Virus genome (UHGV): UHGV-1705688
DNA: 14,677 nt
Reading direction: 5' to 3' (one strand)
DNA from: a virus
The notes under the pieces are model-generated. The model saw only the letters and a program-made list of their open reading frames with translations. It was not told the origin of the DNA and made no database searches. This document shows positions 391 through 6,451 of this stretch, piece by piece. Made by a program: the position numbers and the translations under genes. How positions within the stretch are numbered: position 1 is the stretch's first letter; each line of letters opens with the position of its first letter.

Positions 391-689
391 TGAAAGTTAT
401 AAACCTCAACTGTGAAAGTGAATGCAGGACTACCAGTGGTCGGTAAATAGAATGCAGTGAATCCGCCATTAAAAGCGCGGCAGTAATATTCATTTGCAGT
501 TACGCCAGTTGTAACAATGGATATAAATGAACCATCCTGGGTGATACCGGAAAATGAAACGTCTTTCGTCGTTTCCCCGGCAGCAAATGTTACTGTTGTG
601 CTTCCAATATAGCGGATAGCATAATCACTTAAATCAACGGCAATACGCCCTGCTCCGTCCCAGCATTGCAACCCCTGTGGCATTACCAT
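387..689 (-). CDS. Hypothetical 100-aa protein immediately downstream of J and overlapping it; function unknown.
   Basis: ORF track 387..689. ATG at 689..687 overlaps the J stop (683..685) by 7 nt; a second in-frame ATG lies at 683..681. Its stop overlaps the start of the next gene. Family not recognised. Confidence 0.55.
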   Translation of the reverse strand: MVMPQGLQCWDGAGRIAVDLSDYAIRYIGSTTVTFAAGETTKDVSFSGITQDGSFISIVTTGVTANEYYCRAFNGGFTAFYLPTTGSPAFTFTVEVYNFQ

Positions 690-3600
690 AACCCCATTCT
701 GACACGCAGCACGTTGTTGCTGTCGTAGATTTGAATGAGCGTGCTGGATATCAACATCCTGCCGCCGCCGCCCACACCGTTAATTTCAAACGTTCCCCCT
801 TTATCAAGCTTCCAGCCTACAGAGCCAGCCACATAGTTATTCGACTGGATGTAATTGCCAATTTTTGCATTGCTTATGGTCCCGTCGCCAATAACTGTAT
901 CCCTGATAATGGCCTGGCCATTCTGGATAACGAACGGCAGTGTTACAGTCCCGCCGACCATAGTAGTCACGGCGAAACGGTCTGCCAGGAAGATTACCTG
1001 TGACTGCATGCCGGAGGGTGTATTTTGAACCCCAATACCCATCCCGGCAGCGTAATACTGCCCGTTACTGGACACCCCCACCTTGATGTTATACATCGCG
1101 CTGAGGTTACCGTTTACATCTGCTATAGCCTGTGCGTTGACGTTTATCGCTGCACTGTTTTCGCCTGATTTAACAGTCAGAGTGTTGATTTTTGTTGCCG
1201 AAGCCTGAGTGAAGTCAGCCAGGGTTTCGGTGAGATCGGTTGCATTGGAAATATTGCCACCGGCAGATGCATCCAGCGTAACAAGTGCGCGGGCAACCGC
1301 CGAACTGGTATCCGCAATCGTTGTGTCAATGCGGTCGATGCTGGCGCTGTTTCCGGCATTCGTCACGGTTTGAGATCGACGCGAAGTAACCTGCGCCAGC
1401 CCATTCTGGATTATGGCGATGGCGGAGTTCTTCACTCCCCCAGCCATGCCGTCCACAGACACGCTGATGTTATCGATGCGCTGGCCCAGCGCGGTATCAG
1501 CCGTCGCCACTGTCTGCTCAAGCTCTGAGAGGGAAGACGACACTTCACCGACGGTGCTCGAAAGCTCATTAACGCTGGTCTGAACCTTTCCGACGTCCTG
1601 GGCATTTTTGGCAATATCCTTCGCCTGCTGCTCCAGTTCGTCGTTGGCCTGTTTGATGTCGTCAGCCATGCCAGCAATTTTTTCATTGCTGTCCACCGCG
1701 TTCTCGATCAGGTCTTTGAACGTATCGGAGTCTTTAATTTCCTCCAGAATCACATCTGTGATATCGGAAACATCGATGCTGGCCTGTCCTCGCACCCATT
1801 CTGTGTACCCTGATTCGTTGCCGCTGCGGTCCACCAGCTGCGCGCGGTACCAGAAAATCTGCCCAGCCTTAAGGCCCATCTGCTGATATTTGCGCTGCGG
1901 ATAAGGCACATCGGCCAGCAGCATTGCATCATCTTCGCTACCGGTCAGGCTGTACTGAATTTCCGTCTTCAGCGTGTCTTCGGTATTCGCCGGGAATCCC
2001 CAGTTCAGCTCGATACCGAATACCACGTTTTCAGAAGCGATGAAGCCAACCGGCTTCGGTGGATTGCCCACTTTACCCGTCAGCGTTTTCTCTTCTGAAT
2101 AGCCCCATCCGGATGAAATTTCTGCGGCATTGATTGCGCGCACCCGCACCAGGTAGCGCCCGGCATAAATCCCCGGGACGTCGAATGACGTGGTGGAGGT
2201 GCGCGGCACGTTAACCCAGTTCCCGTCGTTGCGGCGCCATTGCGCTTCATAGGCGATAGCGTTCTGCGCCTGGTCCCAGCTCACGCGCATTGTTTCGACG
2301 CTGATATTTTGCTGAACCACGGAAAACGAGCTGATCACGATATTCGCAGGCGGCGACTGGTTGCCCGGCGGGATCACGCTCACCGGCCGTTGGTCAATGA
2401 TGGCTCCGGTATCGATACGGGCATATTTATCCGGGTCGTGCCATGCGCCGGTAATCGAGAAAGTGCCATCATTGTTATCGGAAACGCTGACAACACGATA
2501 CTGCTGCGCGTAAAGCTCGTCAGATTCAACCACCCAAACAGCTTCGGCCTGTGGCGTCTCACTGTATGCCGTGGTGACTGTGACTGATTCCCCGTTCACG
2601 GCCTGAATGGTCCTGCTCTGCGACGCTCCGGAGGGAAGGTTGAGAATAAGTCGATCACCTGGTGCTGCATCAGCTACGCGGTCAAGTTTGATAACGCGAC
2701 CGTTAACGGCGCTGATGCGGCCGCCCATAACCTTTCCGGAAAGCAGCTCGTCTGCCACGGCGATGATGTAGCCCGGCTGCGGAATGTTTCCGTCCAGCCC
2801 GACATCAAACGAAACAACGCGATCCTTGTTATTGGTGAGAATACCCCAGCGCCCCTTTCGGTTCGCCTCTGACTGCCTGGTGCAGCCGATGGCTGTCATT
2901 TCCAGCTGATTGAAGCCGTACCGCGCCACCAGCGCCTGCTCAAATACCGGCTCCATCGCGTCGGCATAAGCGTTACCCGGGTCTGACCATGAAACCAGCG
3001 CTGTGGTGTAGCGGCTTTTCGTGGTGCTGCTCGAATAGGTGAAGCGACCGCCAACAACGTTAGCGCGCGTATAGCTGTAATCAACATCGCGCGGCATGTC
3101 AGCCAGGGCCACAATCTGATCCCCGCCCCAGTAGGTCATGCCACGGAAGATAGCGGCAAAATCACGCAGGACTGTGTAGGCGTCGTTCCGGTCCTGAATG
3201 TACACGTTGCAGGTATAGCGTGGTTCTGTACCGTTGCCCCCTTTGCCGTCTGGTACCATCTGATCACAATACTGAGCAACCTGATAAAGCGTCCATTTAT
3301 CAATATTCGCAGCGGTCAAACGGTGCCCAAGGCCGAACCGGTCAGAAACAACCAGGTCGTAAAAAATCCACGCAGGGTTATCCGTCCATGCCCACTTAAA
3401 CGCACCGGTCCATGTACCGCTATAAGTGCGGGTTTCAGGGTCGTAGGTATCTGGAACGCGGATAACGCGGCCGCGCGGTTCGCATGAAATTTGAGGAATA
3501 GAGCCGTTGAACTGGCTTGAGTCGAATTCGACGTAGAGCAGCGCGGTGTTCGGGTAGCGCAGTTTGGCGTCAATCACCTCGGTGAAGCTCTGCAGCATCA

Positions 3601-4219
3601 TCGTGTCGCCGATCTTCGCGCTGTTGGCGTCAGAGGTAATCTTACGCAGACGTATTGTCCAGGTGCTGCCAGCCTGCGGTAAATCGATACGGTGGCTGCG
3701 CTCATAACCAGACGTCGTTTTGCCGGTCACGCTGGTATTGAGTACCGTCTGCCATGTGCCGCCGTCCGTCTGTAGGTCAATCGCATAATTGACCGAGTAA
3801 CCCACCAGATCGCCGTCGTCTTCCTGTTTGAAAAGCGAGGGCCATTTAAGACGCAGGCGAACTGCTGAAAGCTGCGTATTGGTAAACGTGCGCGTCCAGG
3901 CTGTGGCACTTGATACCTCAGTTCCTACGCTGATCTCGTTTTCGGTACCGGGAATACCCTGAATATATTTTTGCGCCTGCGTTCCCGCGCGAAACTCCCA
4001 CGTTACCCCGCTGAAGTTTTGGGAGCCGTCAGCATTCTCCAGCGCTGTTCCGTCCAGGTAGATATCTTTGCCGGTTAATTGCCCGGAGAACTCGCCCTCG
4101 CCAAGGGCGATTAAAATTTTCGCCTTCGCAACTGACTGCAGATCATCGGGCTGTTCAGTTGGAGTGCGTGTCTTTGAACTACCGCCTTTGCGGCCTTTAA
4201 TCGCGGTTGCAGTTGCCAT
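683..4219 (-). CDS. J: Tail tip / host specificity protein J (central tail fibre), 1178 aa. Lambda-like N-terminal and central part; longer coiled-coil segment and divergent C-terminal receptor-binding end.
   Basis: Largest ORF in the window, in the lambda position after I. Segments such as GTEPRYTCNVYIQDRNDAYTVLRDF and SQVIFLADRFAV...PFVIQNGQ match lambda J as I recall it; the last part ending GRMLISSTLIQIYDSNNVLRVRMGLW does not. ATG at 4219..4217. Confidence 0.93.
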   Translation of the reverse strand: MATATAIKGRKGGSSKTRTPTEQPDDLQSVAKAKILIALGEGEFSGQLTGKDIYLDGTALENADGSQNFSGVTWEFRAGTQAQKYIQGIPGTENEISVGTEVSSATAWTRTFTNTQLSAVRLRLKWPSLFKQEDDGDLVGYSVNYAIDLQTDGGTWQTVLNTSVTGKTTSGYERSHRIDLPQAGSTWTIRLRKITSDANSAKIGDTMMLQSFTEVIDAKLRYPNTALLYVEFDSSQFNGSIPQISCEPRGRVIRVPDTYDPETRTYSGTWTGAFKWAWTDNPAWIFYDLVVSDRFGLGHRLTAANIDKWTLYQVAQYCDQMVPDGKGGNGTEPRYTCNVYIQDRNDAYTVLRDFAAIFRGMTYWGGDQIVALADMPRDVDYSYTRANVVGGRFTYSSSTTKSRYTTALVSWSDPGNAYADAMEPVFEQALVARYGFNQLEMTAIGCTRQSEANRKGRWGILTNNKDRVVSFDVGLDGNIPQPGYIIAVADELLSGKVMGGRISAVNGRVIKLDRVADAAPGDRLILNLPSGASQSRTIQAVNGESVTVTTAYSETPQAEAVWVVESDELYAQQYRVVSVSDNNDGTFSITGAWHDPDKYARIDTGAIIDQRPVSVIPPGNQSPPANIVISSFSVVQQNISVETMRVSWDQAQNAIAYEAQWRRNDGNWVNVPRTSTTSFDVPGIYAGRYLVRVRAINAAEISSGWGYSEEKTLTGKVGNPPKPVGFIASENVVFGIELNWGFPANTEDTLKTEIQYSLTGSEDDAMLLADVPYPQRKYQQMGLKAGQIFWYRAQLVDRSGNESGYTEWVRGQASIDVSDITDVILEEIKDSDTFKDLIENAVDSNEKIAGMADDIKQANDELEQQAKDIAKNAQDVGKVQTSVNELSSTVGEVSSSLSELEQTVATADTALGQRIDNISVSVDGMAGGVKNSAIAIIQNGLAQVTSRRSQTVTNAGNSASIDRIDTTIADTSSAVARALVTLDASAGGNISNATDLTETLADFTQASATKINTLTVKSGENSAAINVNAQAIADVNGNLSAMYNIKVGVSSNGQYYAAGMGIGVQNTPSGMQSQVIFLADRFAVTTMVGGTVTLPFVIQNGQAIIRDTVIGDGTISNAKIGNYIQSNNYVAGSVGWKLDKGGTFEINGVGGGGRMLISSTLIQIYDSNNVLRVRMGLW

Positions 4220-4230
4220 ATTGCGTCCAT

Positions 4231-4253
4231 AAAAAAAGCCACCCGGAGGTGGC
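4231..4253 (-). terminator. Intrinsic (rho-independent) terminator oriented for minus-strand transcripts, ending 11 nt upstream of the J start codon.
   Basis: Plus-strand GCCACC-CGGA-GGTGGC (4238..4253), a perfect 6-bp GC-rich stem with 4-nt loop, adjacent to A7 (4231..4237); on the minus strand this reads hairpin followed by U7. Confidence 0.6.
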
Positions 4254-4385
4254 TACTGTTTAAATATCAGGCTGTTGGTAACAGGAATCCCTGGTTAATG
4301 TGTAAGCTCAGCCCGCCAGTGGTAGGCCGCTGGCGTTAACTGACCGAGGGATGGCTGAAGTACCCGGTTAAAACGGAGTAATAAG

Positions 4386-4601
4386 ATGATCGAAGAAAAG
4401 TTCGTGGATTTTAGATTTACTCTTGACGAAAATATTCCTAGAGAAATCGCTTTAGAAATTGTGGCTCTAAGACAAGTTACAATGGTATTAACAGCAGCAT
4501 TGCCAGTAGATACAAGGCAACAAGTTATTGAAATCCTATCAAAGACAAACTCACCACAAATTCAAGACATCGTCAAAAATATGAAGCTTATTGACGCCTA
4601 A
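4386..4601 (+). CDS. Hypothetical 71-aa protein in a low-GC insert, antisense to the late operon. Uncertain whether it is expressed.
   Basis: ORF track. ATG at 4386 preceded by GGAG with ~7-nt spacer. A/T-rich third codon positions with AGA/AGG/CTA codons suggest foreign origin. No convincing sigma-70 promoter found in 4254..4385. Overlaps the minus-strand 49-aa ORF by 51 nt. Confidence 0.35.
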   Translation: MIEEKFVDFRFTLDENIPREIALEIVALRQVTMVLTAALPVDTRQQVIEILSKTNSPQIQDIVKNMKLIDA

Positions 4602-4700
4602 TGTCATTGAAGCATCGTACTCTACGGTCTCATGCGGGACCGTTTCATTAACTTCAGATGTTTCATTTTCAGTTTTTTCTACTCGTGACTCAAAAGACAT
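4551..4700 (-). CDS. Hypothetical 49-aa acidic protein in the low-GC insert, co-directional with the late operon. Alternative or partner to the 71-aa plus-strand ORF.
   Basis: My own translation (below the ORF-track length cutoff): MSFESRVEKTENETSEVNETVPHETVEYDASMTLGVNKLHIFDDVLNLW. ATG at 4700..4698 is preceded by a perfect AAGGAG (plus 4707..4712) with 6-nt spacer, 20 nt downstream of the I stop. Confidence 0.3.
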   Translation of the reverse strand: MSFESRVEKTENETSEVNETVPHETVEYDASMTLGVNKLHIFDDVLNLW

Positions 4701-4720
4701 ACACATCTCCTTAACTTAGC

Positions 4721-5326
4721 TTACTGCTGATCTTCGACATAAATTCCGGCAGAAATAATCGCTCCGCCGATTCGACGCTTACCATAAAGCAGAGGCACCG
4801 GGTAGCCTTGCGCTGCAGTGTTGGTTACCCCGCCAAACGCATACGATGCACGGTTATCTGCGCTTTGTTTACTGGCTATGCCTGATGGCTGCGGTGAAAG
4901 CAGCTGAATAACCCCACCGAGGACCAACGAGGCACCAGTGGCAGCAGCAAACCCCGTCAATCCACCAGCAGCGAAAGCAGCGCCAATACCGCCAGAAACA
5001 AAGACTGCAGCAGTTATCAAAACTGCTCCTAATATCGTCTGAAAAAGACCAGCGCGTTTACTACCGATAATTACAGGCATAATCCTTACTACATCGCCTT
5101 CAGAGGGAAAACCCATCTCATCTGCGGCAATATTTCTTTTCCCTTTGAACACCGCGAAAGTTAATCCGCGACGTTTACTGCTGATCATGAAACTTTCGAA
5201 ACCGGGCAATGTTTTACTTAAAGCAATAGCAGCTTCACCAGTTCGCGCTATCAGTCGTTGATGGGTTCTACCGAATGTCTTTCCTAACACTCCGCCGAGC
5301 TGAATTGTTGTCATTACTTCTTTCAT
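4721..5326 (-). CDS. I: Tail assembly protein I, 201 aa.
   Basis: ORF track. Position between K and J; N-terminal pattern and hydrophobic Gly/Ala-rich C-terminal half ending PVPLLYGKRRIGG resemble lambda I. ATG at 5326..5324. Confidence 0.85.
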   Translation of the reverse strand: MKEVMTTIQLGGVLGKTFGRTHQRLIARTGEAAIALSKTLPGFESFMISSKRRGLTFAVFKGKRNIAADEMGFPSEGDVVRIMPVIIGSKRAGLFQTILGAVLITAAVFVSGGIGAAFAAGGLTGFAAATGASLVLGGVIQLLSPQPSGIASKQSADNRASYAFGGVTNTAAQGYPVPLLYGKRRIGGAIISAGIYVEDQQ

Positions 5327-5337
5327 ATTCTCACCAT

Positions 5338-5358
5338 AAAAAAAACCGCCGAAGCGGG
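5338..5358 (-). terminator. Small intrinsic terminator 12 nt after the lipoprotein gene stop and just upstream of the I ribosome-binding site.
   Basis: On the minus strand: CCGC-UUCG-GCGG (4-bp GC stem with UUCG tetraloop) followed by a run of 8 U (plus-strand A8 at 5338..5345). Confidence 0.5.
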
Positions 5359-5369
5359 TTAAGTCTTGG

Positions 5370-5711
5370 TTAGATACAGCGTTCTATTACTTTAATCCGG
5401 CTGTTTATTCGATAAGCAAATAGCCCACCTTGATGACGGAATTCAATCTTGGTAATTCCGCCGTCCGATATTAAATCAACCATCTCAAGTTGAGATTGTG
5501 TAAATACAGTTTTACCACCGTCATAAGGCTGAATAAAAACGCTTCCATATTTTTGGCTTTCTTCTTGCCAGCCAGAGAGTATGCATTCAGCTACTGCGTC
5601 AATTTGTTTCTTCGATTGAAAATTATTTGACGCTGGTTCCTTCCGGAGATCCTGCATACTCGAACAACCAGCCATGATTATCAAAGAAAGTGTCAATAAT
5701 GTTTTTTTCAT
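5370..5711 (-). CDS. Predicted outer-membrane lipoprotein, 113-aa precursor, inserted between K and I. Candidate moron, possibly superinfection exclusion or receptor masking.
   Basis: Inside track ORF 5370..5879, but the true start is the internal ATG at 5711..5709, giving MKKTLLTLSLIIMAGCSS: a basic N-terminus, hydrophobic core and a lipobox-like IMAGC with Ser at +2. Gene is markedly AT-rich versus neighbours and is followed by its own terminator. Lambda has no gene here. Confidence 0.75.
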   Translation of the reverse strand: MKKTLLTLSLIIMAGCSSMQDLRKEPASNNFQSKKQIDAVAECILSGWQEESQKYGSVFIQPYDGGKTVFTQSQLEMVDLISDGGITKIEFRHQGGLFAYRINSRIKVIERCI

Positions 5712-5730
5712 ATCCCTATCCCCTTTGGTT

Positions 5731-5759
5731 TTACAAAAGGTTAGCACAGAGATTTGTAA
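5731..5759 (-). promoter_or_regulatory. Inverted repeat TTACAAA-N15-TTTGTAA spanning the K stop codon, overlapping a weak sigma-70-like -35/-10 candidate for the lipoprotein gene.
   Basis: Plus 5731..5737 TTACAAA and 5753..5759 TTTGTAA are reverse complements. On the minus strand a TTACAA -35-like hexamer and a TGTAAA -10-like hexamer lie ~18 nt apart, 15-20 nt upstream of the lipoprotein ATG. Matches to consensus are modest. Confidence 0.25.
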
Positions 5760-6451
5760 CGTAGAACCTTCATCGTCCTTTCCTGCCAGTAGCCACCATA
5801 CGGCACACGCTGGCTCAGATGTCCATACAGGTGGTGCAGCAGCATATTGCCCTCCAGCAGGATTCCCGCGTGATTCCACTTATCAGCCTGGACCTGCATG
5901 ATCACCATATCGCCGGGTTTCGGTGGTCCGTCGAATTCACGGAATCCGCACTCATACCAGCAATCCTGATAGAAGTTGTCCGGATAGTCGTTTTCCCACC
6001 AGGGATAATCAACCCGGTAATCGTGGAGCTCGATACCATGCGTTTGCCGGAAATAGCTCATTACCAGCCCCCAGCAGTCGAAGTGTCCAAGCACAAACGG
6101 ACGCTCCAGCAGTGGCAGTTCTCCGCGCGGCTGGATGGTGCGTAAATCCCCCTCCGGCCAGCTCACAATATGCCAGGGTAAAAGCGTTGCGTCGCATTGC
6201 GCTTTATCCAGTTCGCTCGGCTGCGTAGTGGCGTCAGGGTGACTGTGAACGATGGCGATCACCGTACCCCAGTCCTCAGCAGCTGCATAGTCTTCTGGCG
6301 ACAGGTGAAAATGTTCTGTCGGCTCGGTAGCGAGGTTACTACATGGAAAATATTTCTCTACCCGGCTCTTTTGCGCCACCACGCCGCAACACTCATGAGG
6401 ATATTCAGCTGCAGCATGCGCCATAATCGCATCGATGGTTTTCTGACGCAT
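5741..6451 (-). CDS. K: Tail assembly protein K, 236 aa, with a JAMM/MPN metalloprotease-like domain and an NlpC/P60-like cysteine peptidase domain.
   Basis: ORF track. HSHPDATTQPSELD fits the JAMM motif HxH-x7-S-x2-D; the C-terminal half has a conserved Cys (FDCWGLV) and His (HAGILLEG), consistent with NlpC/P60. Lambda position between L and I. Confidence 0.9.
   Translation of the reverse strand: MRQKTIDAIMAHAAAEYPHECCGVVAQKSRVEKYFPCSNLATEPTEHFHLSPEDYAAAEDWGTVIAIVHSHPDATTQPSELDKAQCDATLLPWHIVSWPEGDLRTIQPRGELPLLERPFVLGHFDCWGLVMSYFRQTHGIELHDYRVDYPWWENDYPDNFYQDCWYECGFREFDGPPKPGDMVIMQVQADKWNHAGILLEGNMLLHHLYGHLSQRVPYGGYWQERTMKVLRYKSLC

Follow-up and report, generated by a model that had tools for sequence, protein, structure and literature searches.

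A probable moron cassette with a reverse-oriented gene and a structured leader between tail genes I and J of virus genome UHGV-1705688

The insert at the I-J junction and its reverse-oriented gene

The virus genome UHGV-1705688 was analysed as a single stretch of 14,677 nucleotides (nt), referred to here as the window, and the subject of this report is an insert that lies in it between the tail assembly gene I and the tail tip gene J. According to the list of open reading frames (ORFs) and to near-identical records, the tail (late) operon is transcribed from the minus strand and contains J, I and K, with L, M and H further up. The I-J interval spans about 500 bp and carries two convergent ORFs whose 3' ends overlap by 51 nt (4551-4601). 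The plus-strand ORF, gene B (4386..4601, 71 amino acids (aa)), is preceded by a GGAG Shine-Dalgarno (SD) motif that can be read directly at 4375..4378, 7 nt upstream of its ATG. The minus-strand ORF, ORF A (4551..4700), encodes a highly acidic and hydrophilic product of 49 aa from the ATG at 4700, or of 51 aa from the first ATG at 4706 (ORF 4551..4706). Its AAGGAG SD motif, also a direct reading (4708..4713, minus strand), stands 6 nt before ATG 4700, and this start is located 20 nt past the stop codon of gene I (4723..4721). All these elements had been described in the original prediction and were recovered as such, including the low GC content of some 330 bp, which amounts to 0.363 over 331 bp (4386-4716) compared with 0.496 in the neighbouring 131 nt (4255-4385), 0.548 in J and 0.533 in the entire window. 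In lambda, no gene is known at this position.

The comparison with related phages and prophages delimits the insert. I and J are separated by only about 53 bp in HK544 and HK633, an empty site as opposed to the roughly 500 bp of the window, and these junctions place the bounds of the insert at approximately 4255-4716. In BLAST searches of phage records, HK544, HK633, HK542 and ECP1 match the flanks but not the insert, phage mEp506 (PV340542.1) contains this insert (96.3% identity) and has annotations for both ORFs, and HK97 gives a partial match. The HK97 record (GenBank AF069529) places at its I-J junction gene 22, a "moron product" on the late strand, and gene 23, a "reverse moron product" on the opposite strand, convergent and overlapping, together with two putative terminators, and genes 22 and 23 of HK022 (AF069308) are annotated as "moron gene product", gp23 being named "srb protein". 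HK97 and HK022, in contrast to lambda, thus have genes between I and J. With a moron and a reverse moron recorded at this very position in both phages, such a pair is not unusual for this phage group, contrary to the earlier view of it as unusual in a late operon. The type of locus is already known, having been annotated in HK97 and HK022 since 2000, and the same sequence is in GenBank in mEp506 and four E. coli prophages. The insert is present in four of 5426 complete E. coli genomes, where RefSeq annotates the plus-strand ORF alone (WP_053263845.1, identical to the product of B). Five close copies (the window, L001 and L004-L006, compared over 4255-4716) show 3 variable sites in about 460 nt, with markedly divergent adjacent I and J sequence. 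The near constancy of the insert across the diverging flanks of five backbones points to a recent lateral spread of the cassette between HK97-like prophages, and this, together with the empty sites, supports at the sequence level the earlier proposal of an accessory module of foreign base composition gained by horizontal transfer. Because the close copies are too similar for an analysis of selection, more distant homologues were employed for that purpose.

Morons have been characterized as additional DNA that separates genes found side by side in related phages, with a differing base composition, their own promoter, their own terminator and expression from the repressed prophage (Juhala et al. 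2000, as summarised in PMC3594210). The extra DNA, the differing base composition and an own terminator, with a weak U-tract after the hairpin, are all found here. As regards a promoter, a consensus scan returned none in the leader of gene B, and a position weight matrix scan gave only weak candidates in a conserved register.

At the protein level, sequence comparison identifies B as a genuine protein family under purifying selection. Homologues at 63-65% identity occur in Kosakonia and in metagenomes, and an exhaustive HMMER search gathered nine representatives after clustering at 50%, the most distant of them at 33% identity and all of about 70-80 aa. These homologues keep their length, start and context, and their pairwise nonsynonymous divergence (dN) ranges from 0.29 to 0.60 with a saturated synonymous divergence (dS). 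B appears in one of 50,697 phage records. Wherever the contig could be read, B homologues are antisense to the neighbouring late genes, be it at the I-J junction (Kosakonia, L013, L014), between M and L (L020), between Q and holin (Arsenophonus, L017) or downstream of tail-tip genes (L019). This antisense placement at varied junctions indicates that B is carried as cargo by a mobile unit whose insertions into late operons are in reverse orientation.

The function of this cargo was approached through families and folds. When both ORFs and their relatives were compared with Pfam, NCBIfam, PHROGs and PADLOC, the sole family match for either of them was that of B to phrog_6806 (1.6e-6), a family with no function assigned. 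An AlphaFold2 model built on the family alignment predicts a soluble-looking protein of three helices (predicted local distance difference test score of 79), for which Foldseek gave no match at E <= 0.001 in the PDB or BFVD. In the mEp506 record (PV340542.1) the 71-aa ORF is labelled DUF2594 (PF10769), and this label could not be reproduced: the Pfam hidden Markov model (HMM) gave no match at E <= 1, and YecF, used as a positive control on PF10769, was detected at 8.9e-38 (128.6 bits). The B-family profile aligned to YecF with an hhalign probability of 0.3% and to HK022 gp23 with a weak 63%, and HK022 gp23 gave a BLASTP E-value of 3e-4 with YecF in one pairwise comparison, so that B would be connected to YecF by a weak transitive sequence link through HK022 gp23. 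YecF/DUF2594 resembles B in its size (about 71-74 aa) and in a similar amphipathic helix pattern.

The conserved leader and the hairpins of the cassette

The 131 nt that extend from the late-strand terminator to the ATG of B had been taken for a GC-richer non-coding stretch. The composition was as stated, but this stretch holds a candidate promoter region and a conserved structured leader, and it can be aligned across cassettes with differing cargos, including HK97 gp23 and HK022 gp23. Its blocks follow one another in a fixed order. An imperfect dyad without strand assignment, CTGTT-TAAAT-ATCAG (4256..4270; CTGAT-N5-ATCAG in relatives), forms a conserved block between the terminator and the candidate promoter. 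The candidate sigma-70 promoter of B, TTGGTA-15 nt-TAATGT (4275..4301, plus strand), is weak and has a short spacer; it belongs to a block of the form TTGNTN-15-TA(A/T)(T/G)(G/T)T and is in register with the TTGCTG-15-TATGTT of L020-L025. The sequence continues with TCAGCC, a hairpin termed P2, the block (G/A)AGGGATGGCTGATTACCTC (in the window the variant ...GGCTGAAGTACCC), the SD motif and the ATG. An SD-like AAGGA or GGAG precedes the ATG in 17 leader variants. The only sigma-70-like call of the consensus scan in 3900-5900 is ATGACA-18-CATATT (4607..4578, minus strand), which lies inside ORF A and is directed into the B antisense.

The leader itself (4308..4385, plus strand) was delineated by alignments across cassettes, covariation and folding. 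Its outer stem P1 is formed by the perfect complements TCAGCC (4308-4313) and GGCTGA (4353-4358), found in the alignment and in the minimum-free-energy (MFE) structure, and encloses the 8-bp hairpin P2 (4314-4321 with 4328-4335, plus strand), seen in the alignment, in compensatory changes and in the MFE structure. P2 is 92.6% paired over the 17 variants and three of its pairs show compensatory changes. In controls with the 3' partners displaced by 1-3 columns, pairing fell to 29-45%, and two of 500 shuffles reached the observed covariation score. One P2 pair contains seven U.G wobbles, all of which would be A.C mismatches on the opposite strand. This strand restriction indicates that the P2 hairpin has been selected in the B-sense RNA and, consequently, lends indirect support to transcription in the direction of B. 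The arms of P1 are invariant and hence devoid of any covariation signal. The window leader folds with an MFE of -30 kcal/mol (z = -2.6) into a structure that reproduces P1 and P2, and the opposite strand reaches -25.5 kcal/mol (z = -1.9). RNAalifold on the MAFFT alignment returned P1 alone and P2 emerged with a trimmed alignment, in which L013 is one column off register, so that the P2 counts are conservative. A third stem, P3 (GAGG/CCUC), which would form a pseudoknot, was not established (64% paired). No Rfam 15 family matched the leader at the gathering score.

The nucleotide-level invariance of the leader is concentrated in TCAGCC, GGCTGA and ATGGCTGATTACCTC. IMG/VR contains at least 121 exact matches to a 16-mer of the leader. 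Among the 121 matches listed, 103 have TCAGCC and the hairpin in their complete arrangement, and their arms supply many additional compensatory variants. Downstream of 96 of these 103 full leaders, at a fixed distance, stands an ORF of 63-99 aa; at least 51 different cargo N-termini are represented, and 24 of the 103 are accompanied by a convergent ORF of the MTLEQR type. The same 16-mer scan applied to genome contigs yielded mostly chance matches (leader architecture in 5 of 120). The invariant block (window 4352-4372; also in L020-L034) can in addition be read as a mini-ORF: ATGGCTGATTACCTC followed by TGA or TAA encodes MADYL* in HK633, SPN3UB, SaltyDalty, L023 and FSL SP-016. The corresponding reading is MAEVPG* in the window and becomes an in-frame fusion to the cargo in L020 and L021. 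The ATG of this mini-ORF is preceded by a GAGGG at a distance of only 0-1 nt. All third codon positions of this mini-ORF are invariant, which points to a constraint on RNA or DNA rather than on a peptide.

Two hairpins with the features of intrinsic terminators are present. Gene B is followed by ACGGTCTC-ATGC-GGGACCGT and TTCATT (4624..4649, plus strand), which was recognized by folding and lies inside ORF A; the fold has an 8-bp stem within a 59-nt fragment and a free energy of -15.2 kcal/mol. Homologous hairpins of the form GCGGYC-N8-GGCCGC with a T-run are located 3' of the reverse gene in L011, L013, L014, L019, L020, L021 and L025. Within A the hairpin is read as TVPHETV in the window, and the same frame, with an AA-xxx-TA pattern, is kept in six lineages. 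This frame-keeping through the hairpin may be regarded as weak additional sequence evidence for a continued translation of A across it.

On the late strand, folding and scanning identified the intrinsic terminator AGCCACC-UCCG-GGUGGCU followed by U7 (4231..4254, minus strand), which ends 11 nt before the ATG of J (4219). Its stem (4254..4237) has 7 bp, 5 of them GC, closes a loop of 4 nt and is followed by the U7 tract, with a free energy of -13.7 kcal/mol (z = -2.9); the HK97 and HK633 records list this element as a putative terminator. The number of terminator-like sites in the 2-kb region, four against 2.2 expected from shuffles, means that the promoter and terminator scan was not enriched; the J-proximal hairpin is credible because it is conserved in every relative examined. 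The late-strand terminator and a short spacer, TTTTTTTATGG(A/G)CGCAATATG, are kept before J (window 4220-4254) and before L in the M-L copies (L020 2850-2890), and the same terminator-spacer block appears at about 1120-1155 in L007 and L008 and is present at the empty I-J junctions of HK544 and HK633. A late-strand terminator precedes gene L in L020, L021 and L023. Either the empty sites are deletion derivatives or the terminators serve as recombination joints for the entry of the cassette. On the late strand, the terminator and dyad region also gave matches below threshold to two Rfam families (window 4231-4268 (-); L033 725-806 (-)), namely isrD with 22.6 bits against a cut-off of 37 (E = 0.046) and isrK with 22 against 50 (E = 0.15). 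Both isrD and isrK are Hfq-binding small RNAs (sRNAs) from Salmonella prophage islands, and the matches probably reflect a generic similarity between terminators.

ORF A and the exchange of cargo

ORF A is the counterpart of B on the late strand, and its sequence identifies it as a decayed member of a real family that travels with reverse genes. In each context of a B homologue there is a late-strand ORF with a good SD motif that converges on B and overlaps its 3' end, and an SD motif and ATG equivalent to those of A stand right behind the upstream late gene in Kosakonia, L013, L014, L020, L021, L023 and L025. The family members are of about 75 aa (MTLEQRIEALEKKVA...), and the longer versions, such as MTLEQRIEALEKKVASL... 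in L020 and MDERIEVLESRIAELEKQ... in L017, are homologous to one another. A profile search gathered 23 clusters from Pantoea, Arsenophonus and metagenomes, with the window version at E = 3e-3. They share a 47-aa core, MTLEQRIEALEKKVAxLTLPxxKxEELAKMMRDxxxExIKNAxRPGG, followed by variable tails, and the core has a dN/dS of 0.06-0.55. The conservation at the protein level in relatives, on which the original prediction had made its case depend, is therefore observed on both strands. Searches of Pfam, NCBIfam, PHROGs and PADLOC gave no match for A. A tblastn search of phage records with full-length A also returned nothing, yet mEp213_071 carries the motif, and short proteins escape a search of this kind. 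In the A core, one antisense frame is free of stops in all four sequences compared (first 141 nt of L020, L021, L023 and L025), which may be a by-product of codon patterns.

The window version of A still has its SD motif and start codon and roughly the first 11-20 residues of the core (MSFESRVEKTE, to be compared with MTLEQRIEALE in the family). It has lost the second helix, that is, the second half of the core (EELAKMMRD..IKNA.RPGG), and the hydrophobic residues of the coiled-coil heptads are replaced by Thr. Its dN/dS relative to Kosakonia is about 0.56, a value that refers to the alignable part only. Judged from these sequence features, A in the window looks like the decaying remnant of a real second gene and not like an equal partner of B, although it is probably still translated.

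Full-length A is again accompanied by a convergent reverse gene, which in these contexts, the cargos of L021, L023 and L025 being examples, is unlike the B family. The same arrangement is found in phages, with mEp213_071 (MTLEERITALEKAV...) and mEp213_072 after Rz, HK633_067 also after Rz and SPN3UB_0032/0033 between M and L, as well as in E. coli H6. A is thus nearly constant while the cargo varies widely, and this counts against a role of A as a specific antidote.

The genes that surround the cassette provide its context. J (683..4219, minus strand) is known from the ORF list and annotations, and the cassette ends 11 nt from its ATG. Gene I (4721..5326, minus strand), after whose stop codon the cassette begins, is taken from the ORF list, and the mEp506 and HK97 records name its product "tail tip assembly protein I". 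The DNA encoding its C-terminus, the 3' part of the gene, is kept in all relatives compared. The match of the I protein to the Pfam family Lambda_tail_I is weak (E = 0.083) and falls short of the gathering score, although every related record calls it tail assembly protein I. Gene K occupies 5741..6451 (minus strand; ORF list and annotations). Between K and I (5327-5740) there is a second insert of low GC content (0.39), which contains an ORF for a 74-aa protein (5379..5603, minus strand), which RefSeq names "YebO family protein", which is similar to gp20 of HK022 and HK97 and which matches phrog_914 at 2e-18; a terminator is annotated just after it in HK97 and HK633. Other genes occupy this K-I site in relatives (ORFs of 516 and 396 nt; E. 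coli MB06022, EC23HZZ201), which marks it as another moron hotspot.

Readings of the cassette and comparison with known systems

Taken together, the I-J insert is probably an allele of the mobile cassette annotated as "moron" and "reverse moron" in HK97 and HK022 and borne by lambdoid phages of Enterobacterales within the Q-dependent late operon. B would act as an accessory protein during lysogeny and be downregulated towards the end of the lytic cycle. In late-operon order, such a cassette would consist of A with its strong SD motif, the convergent B, the terminator of B inside A, the promoter and leader of B and the late-strand terminator abutting J. Its anatomy suggests that in the lysogen, with the late operon silent, B would be transcribed from its own promoter up to its own hairpin. 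In lambdoid phages, polymerase modified by the antiterminator Q passes terminators. After induction, Q-modified polymerase would thus run through both hairpins, producing an RNA antisense to B and allowing the translation of A. Expression of B could then be lowered by polymerase collision or by duplex RNA, by analogy with the logic of a "non-contiguous operon". B is most likely a prophage-benefit factor such as an exclusion, defence or host modulation protein, and full-length A may be expressed late as a partner or antagonist. A precedent for such a circuit has been reported in phi80, where taiEcA (204 aa) has the reverse orientation within the Q operon, is expressed in the lysogen and declines upon Q expression, and is adjoined by the small late-strand counter-defence gene atiEcA (He et al. 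2024; PMC11364771). This Tai/Ati system inhibits the tail assembly of other phages, and the counter-gene prevents autoimmunity (PMC11364771).

Several observations weigh against this interpretation. The candidate promoter of B is weak, has a spacer of 15 nt and was not called by the consensus scan, and Pantoea-type leaders offer a rival placement, TAGACA-17-TATTCA. The U-tract of the B terminator is poor in the window (TTCATT). The J-proximal terminator is also found at the empty I-J junctions of HK544 and HK633, and a terminator inside an empty junction of about 53 bp is not simply the insert's own; the strong minus-strand terminator 11 nt before J had been correctly predicted, but not its exclusive assignment to the insert. 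Neither B nor A matches a defence, anti-defence, toxin or other characterized family in Pfam, NCBIfam, PADLOC, the PDB or BFVD, and the earlier suggestion of a small anti-defence or exclusion protein found no backing in PADLOC, Pfam or fold searches. Homology to TaiEcA or AtiEcA is ruled out by hhalign probabilities of at most 0.1%, and the phi80 genes are divergent with a 5' overlap, in contrast to the convergent genes with a 3' overlap of the window, where nothing suggests an inhibition of tail assembly either. Finally, mEp506, a complete phage genome whose recorded host is E. coli K-12 MG1655, carries the same short A, which argues against an obligatory antidote role of this ORF.

An alternative is that the 71-aa and 49-aa products of the window are both active as a functional antisense-coupled pair, for instance an effector with a late antidote or a defence and counter-defence couple in the manner of Tai/Ati. 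It would account for the preservation of the strong AAGGAG and the ATG of A in all copies, for the resemblance of the A N-terminus (MSFESRVEKTE) to that of the family (MTLEQRIEALE), for the frame of A that stays open through the B hairpin in six lineages and for the presence of full-length A alongside reverse genes at several junctions, and it has the Tai/Ati precedent in its favour. This possibility is nevertheless considered unlikely, since A in the window is without the second half of the core and has Thr at its heptad positions, evolves at a dN/dS of about 0.56 where it can be aligned with Kosakonia, and has no homology to Ati, and a specific recognition between A and B is hard to square with a near-constant A facing a variable B. 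The antisense-regulated pair originally envisaged is accordingly upheld as to the antisense arrangement in a late operon, for which phi80 tai/ati (PMC11364771) is a studied precedent, and not as to equal partners, given the decay of A.

The leader, possibly together with the antisense overlap, could act solely as a cis or trans regulatory RNA (an sRNA or a regulator of read-through into J), the ORFs being secondary; a leader that is better conserved than its cargo, with invariant TCAGCC, GGCTGA and ATGGCTGATTACCTC and a covarying hairpin, speaks for such an RNA, as do the isrD- and isrK-like matches in the late-strand terminator region. It is an improbable explanation, because the Rfam scores are far under the gathering cut-offs, nearly all the full leaders among the matches listed are followed at a fixed distance by an ORF, an SD-like motif is present in the 17 aligned variants, and the B family is clearly under purifying selection at the protein level. 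The 51-nt convergent overlap, the small ORFs and the prophage location also recall a type I toxin-antitoxin locus, in which a small toxin mRNA is controlled by an overlapping antisense transcript. Yet neither peptide is hydrophobic or membrane-like, B being predicted as a soluble-looking three-helix protein and A being highly acidic, at least 51 unrelated small proteins interchange as cargo, and PADLOC and Pfam gave no toxin match, all of which makes this very improbable. Least probable, and already strongly disfavoured, is a functionless recombination remnant with chance ORFs. The degenerate state of A and the rarity of the insert and of B in the E. coli genomes and phage records would fit it, but B homologues at 33-65% identity have kept their length, start and context with dN well under dS, and the leader hairpin covaries.

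The preferred reading, that of a mobile cassette with a lysogeny-phase accessory gene, can be extended, with considerable doubt, to a whole system of lambdoid prophages. A conserved scaffold made of the A gene, the B terminator, the structured leader and the late-strand terminator would accommodate dozens of interchangeable lysogen-expressed effectors of 63-99 aa, which a new cis-regulatory RNA would control and antisense transcription of the late operon would silence. In this scheme A would be a generic late-phase partner or antagonist, and B of the window would be one effector, with a function for instance in defence, exclusion or host modulation. The leader of this scaffold is possibly pseudoknotted, with P1 (TCAGCC/GGCTGA), the covarying P2 and the invariant GATGGCTGATTACCTC. 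The A family, the pattern of interchangeable cargo and the conserved structured leader outside Rfam are by-products of modest novelty; no description of any of the three was found in the searchable literature, which did not extend to the text of the key paper of 2000. A leader placed before at least 51 small proteins, with a frequent late-strand partner, defines a compact and experimentally tractable set of small proteins that would be lysogen-expressed if the reading is true. The leader is at the same time a candidate for a new cis-regulatory RNA, and the cassette offers a simple place to test whether antisense late transcription switches off prophage accessory genes. mEp506, HK022, HK97, mEp213 and SPN3UB, all with deposited genomes, are natural starting points.

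Among known systems, the closest in layout are genes 22 and 23 of HK97 and HK022, which have in common with the window the I-J junction, the convergent pair of a late-strand and a reverse gene with overlapping 3' ends and the J-proximal terminator. The likeness includes the leader, of which about 70 nt are identical to HK97 and the full set of motifs is present in HK022. It does not reach the proteins: an allelic homology of A and B to gp22 and gp23 of HK97 was expected and is ruled out, as no alignment was obtained and hence no protein similarity to the window ORFs is detectable, and HK022 gp22 (59 aa) is without the MTLEQR motif of A. These differences indicate that the window has a different cargo allele and a decayed A. 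In lambda, bor is a lysogen-expressed lipoprotein gene located downstream of Rz and antisense to the late operon. We know of no sequence relation between bor and the cassette, nor of a conserved leader or an A partner of bor. Both are reverse-oriented morons in late-operon territory, and mEp213 and HK633 carry the cassette at the same post-Rz position. The tha/ith module of the staphylococcal phage 80alpha, in which a phage operon encloses an antisense gene driven by a promoter of its own, with mutually exclusive expression states tied to lysogeny and lysis (PMC11087260), belongs to the cI operon of a phage from another host and has unrelated proteins, so that the likeness is one of logic only. 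With regard to the definition of a non-contiguous operon, the antisense gene nested between late genes is observed in the window and its promoter is a prediction. As in phi80 taiEcA/atiEcA, a reverse accessory gene in a Q-dependent late operon would be combined with an adjacent small late-strand gene, a correspondence in arrangement.

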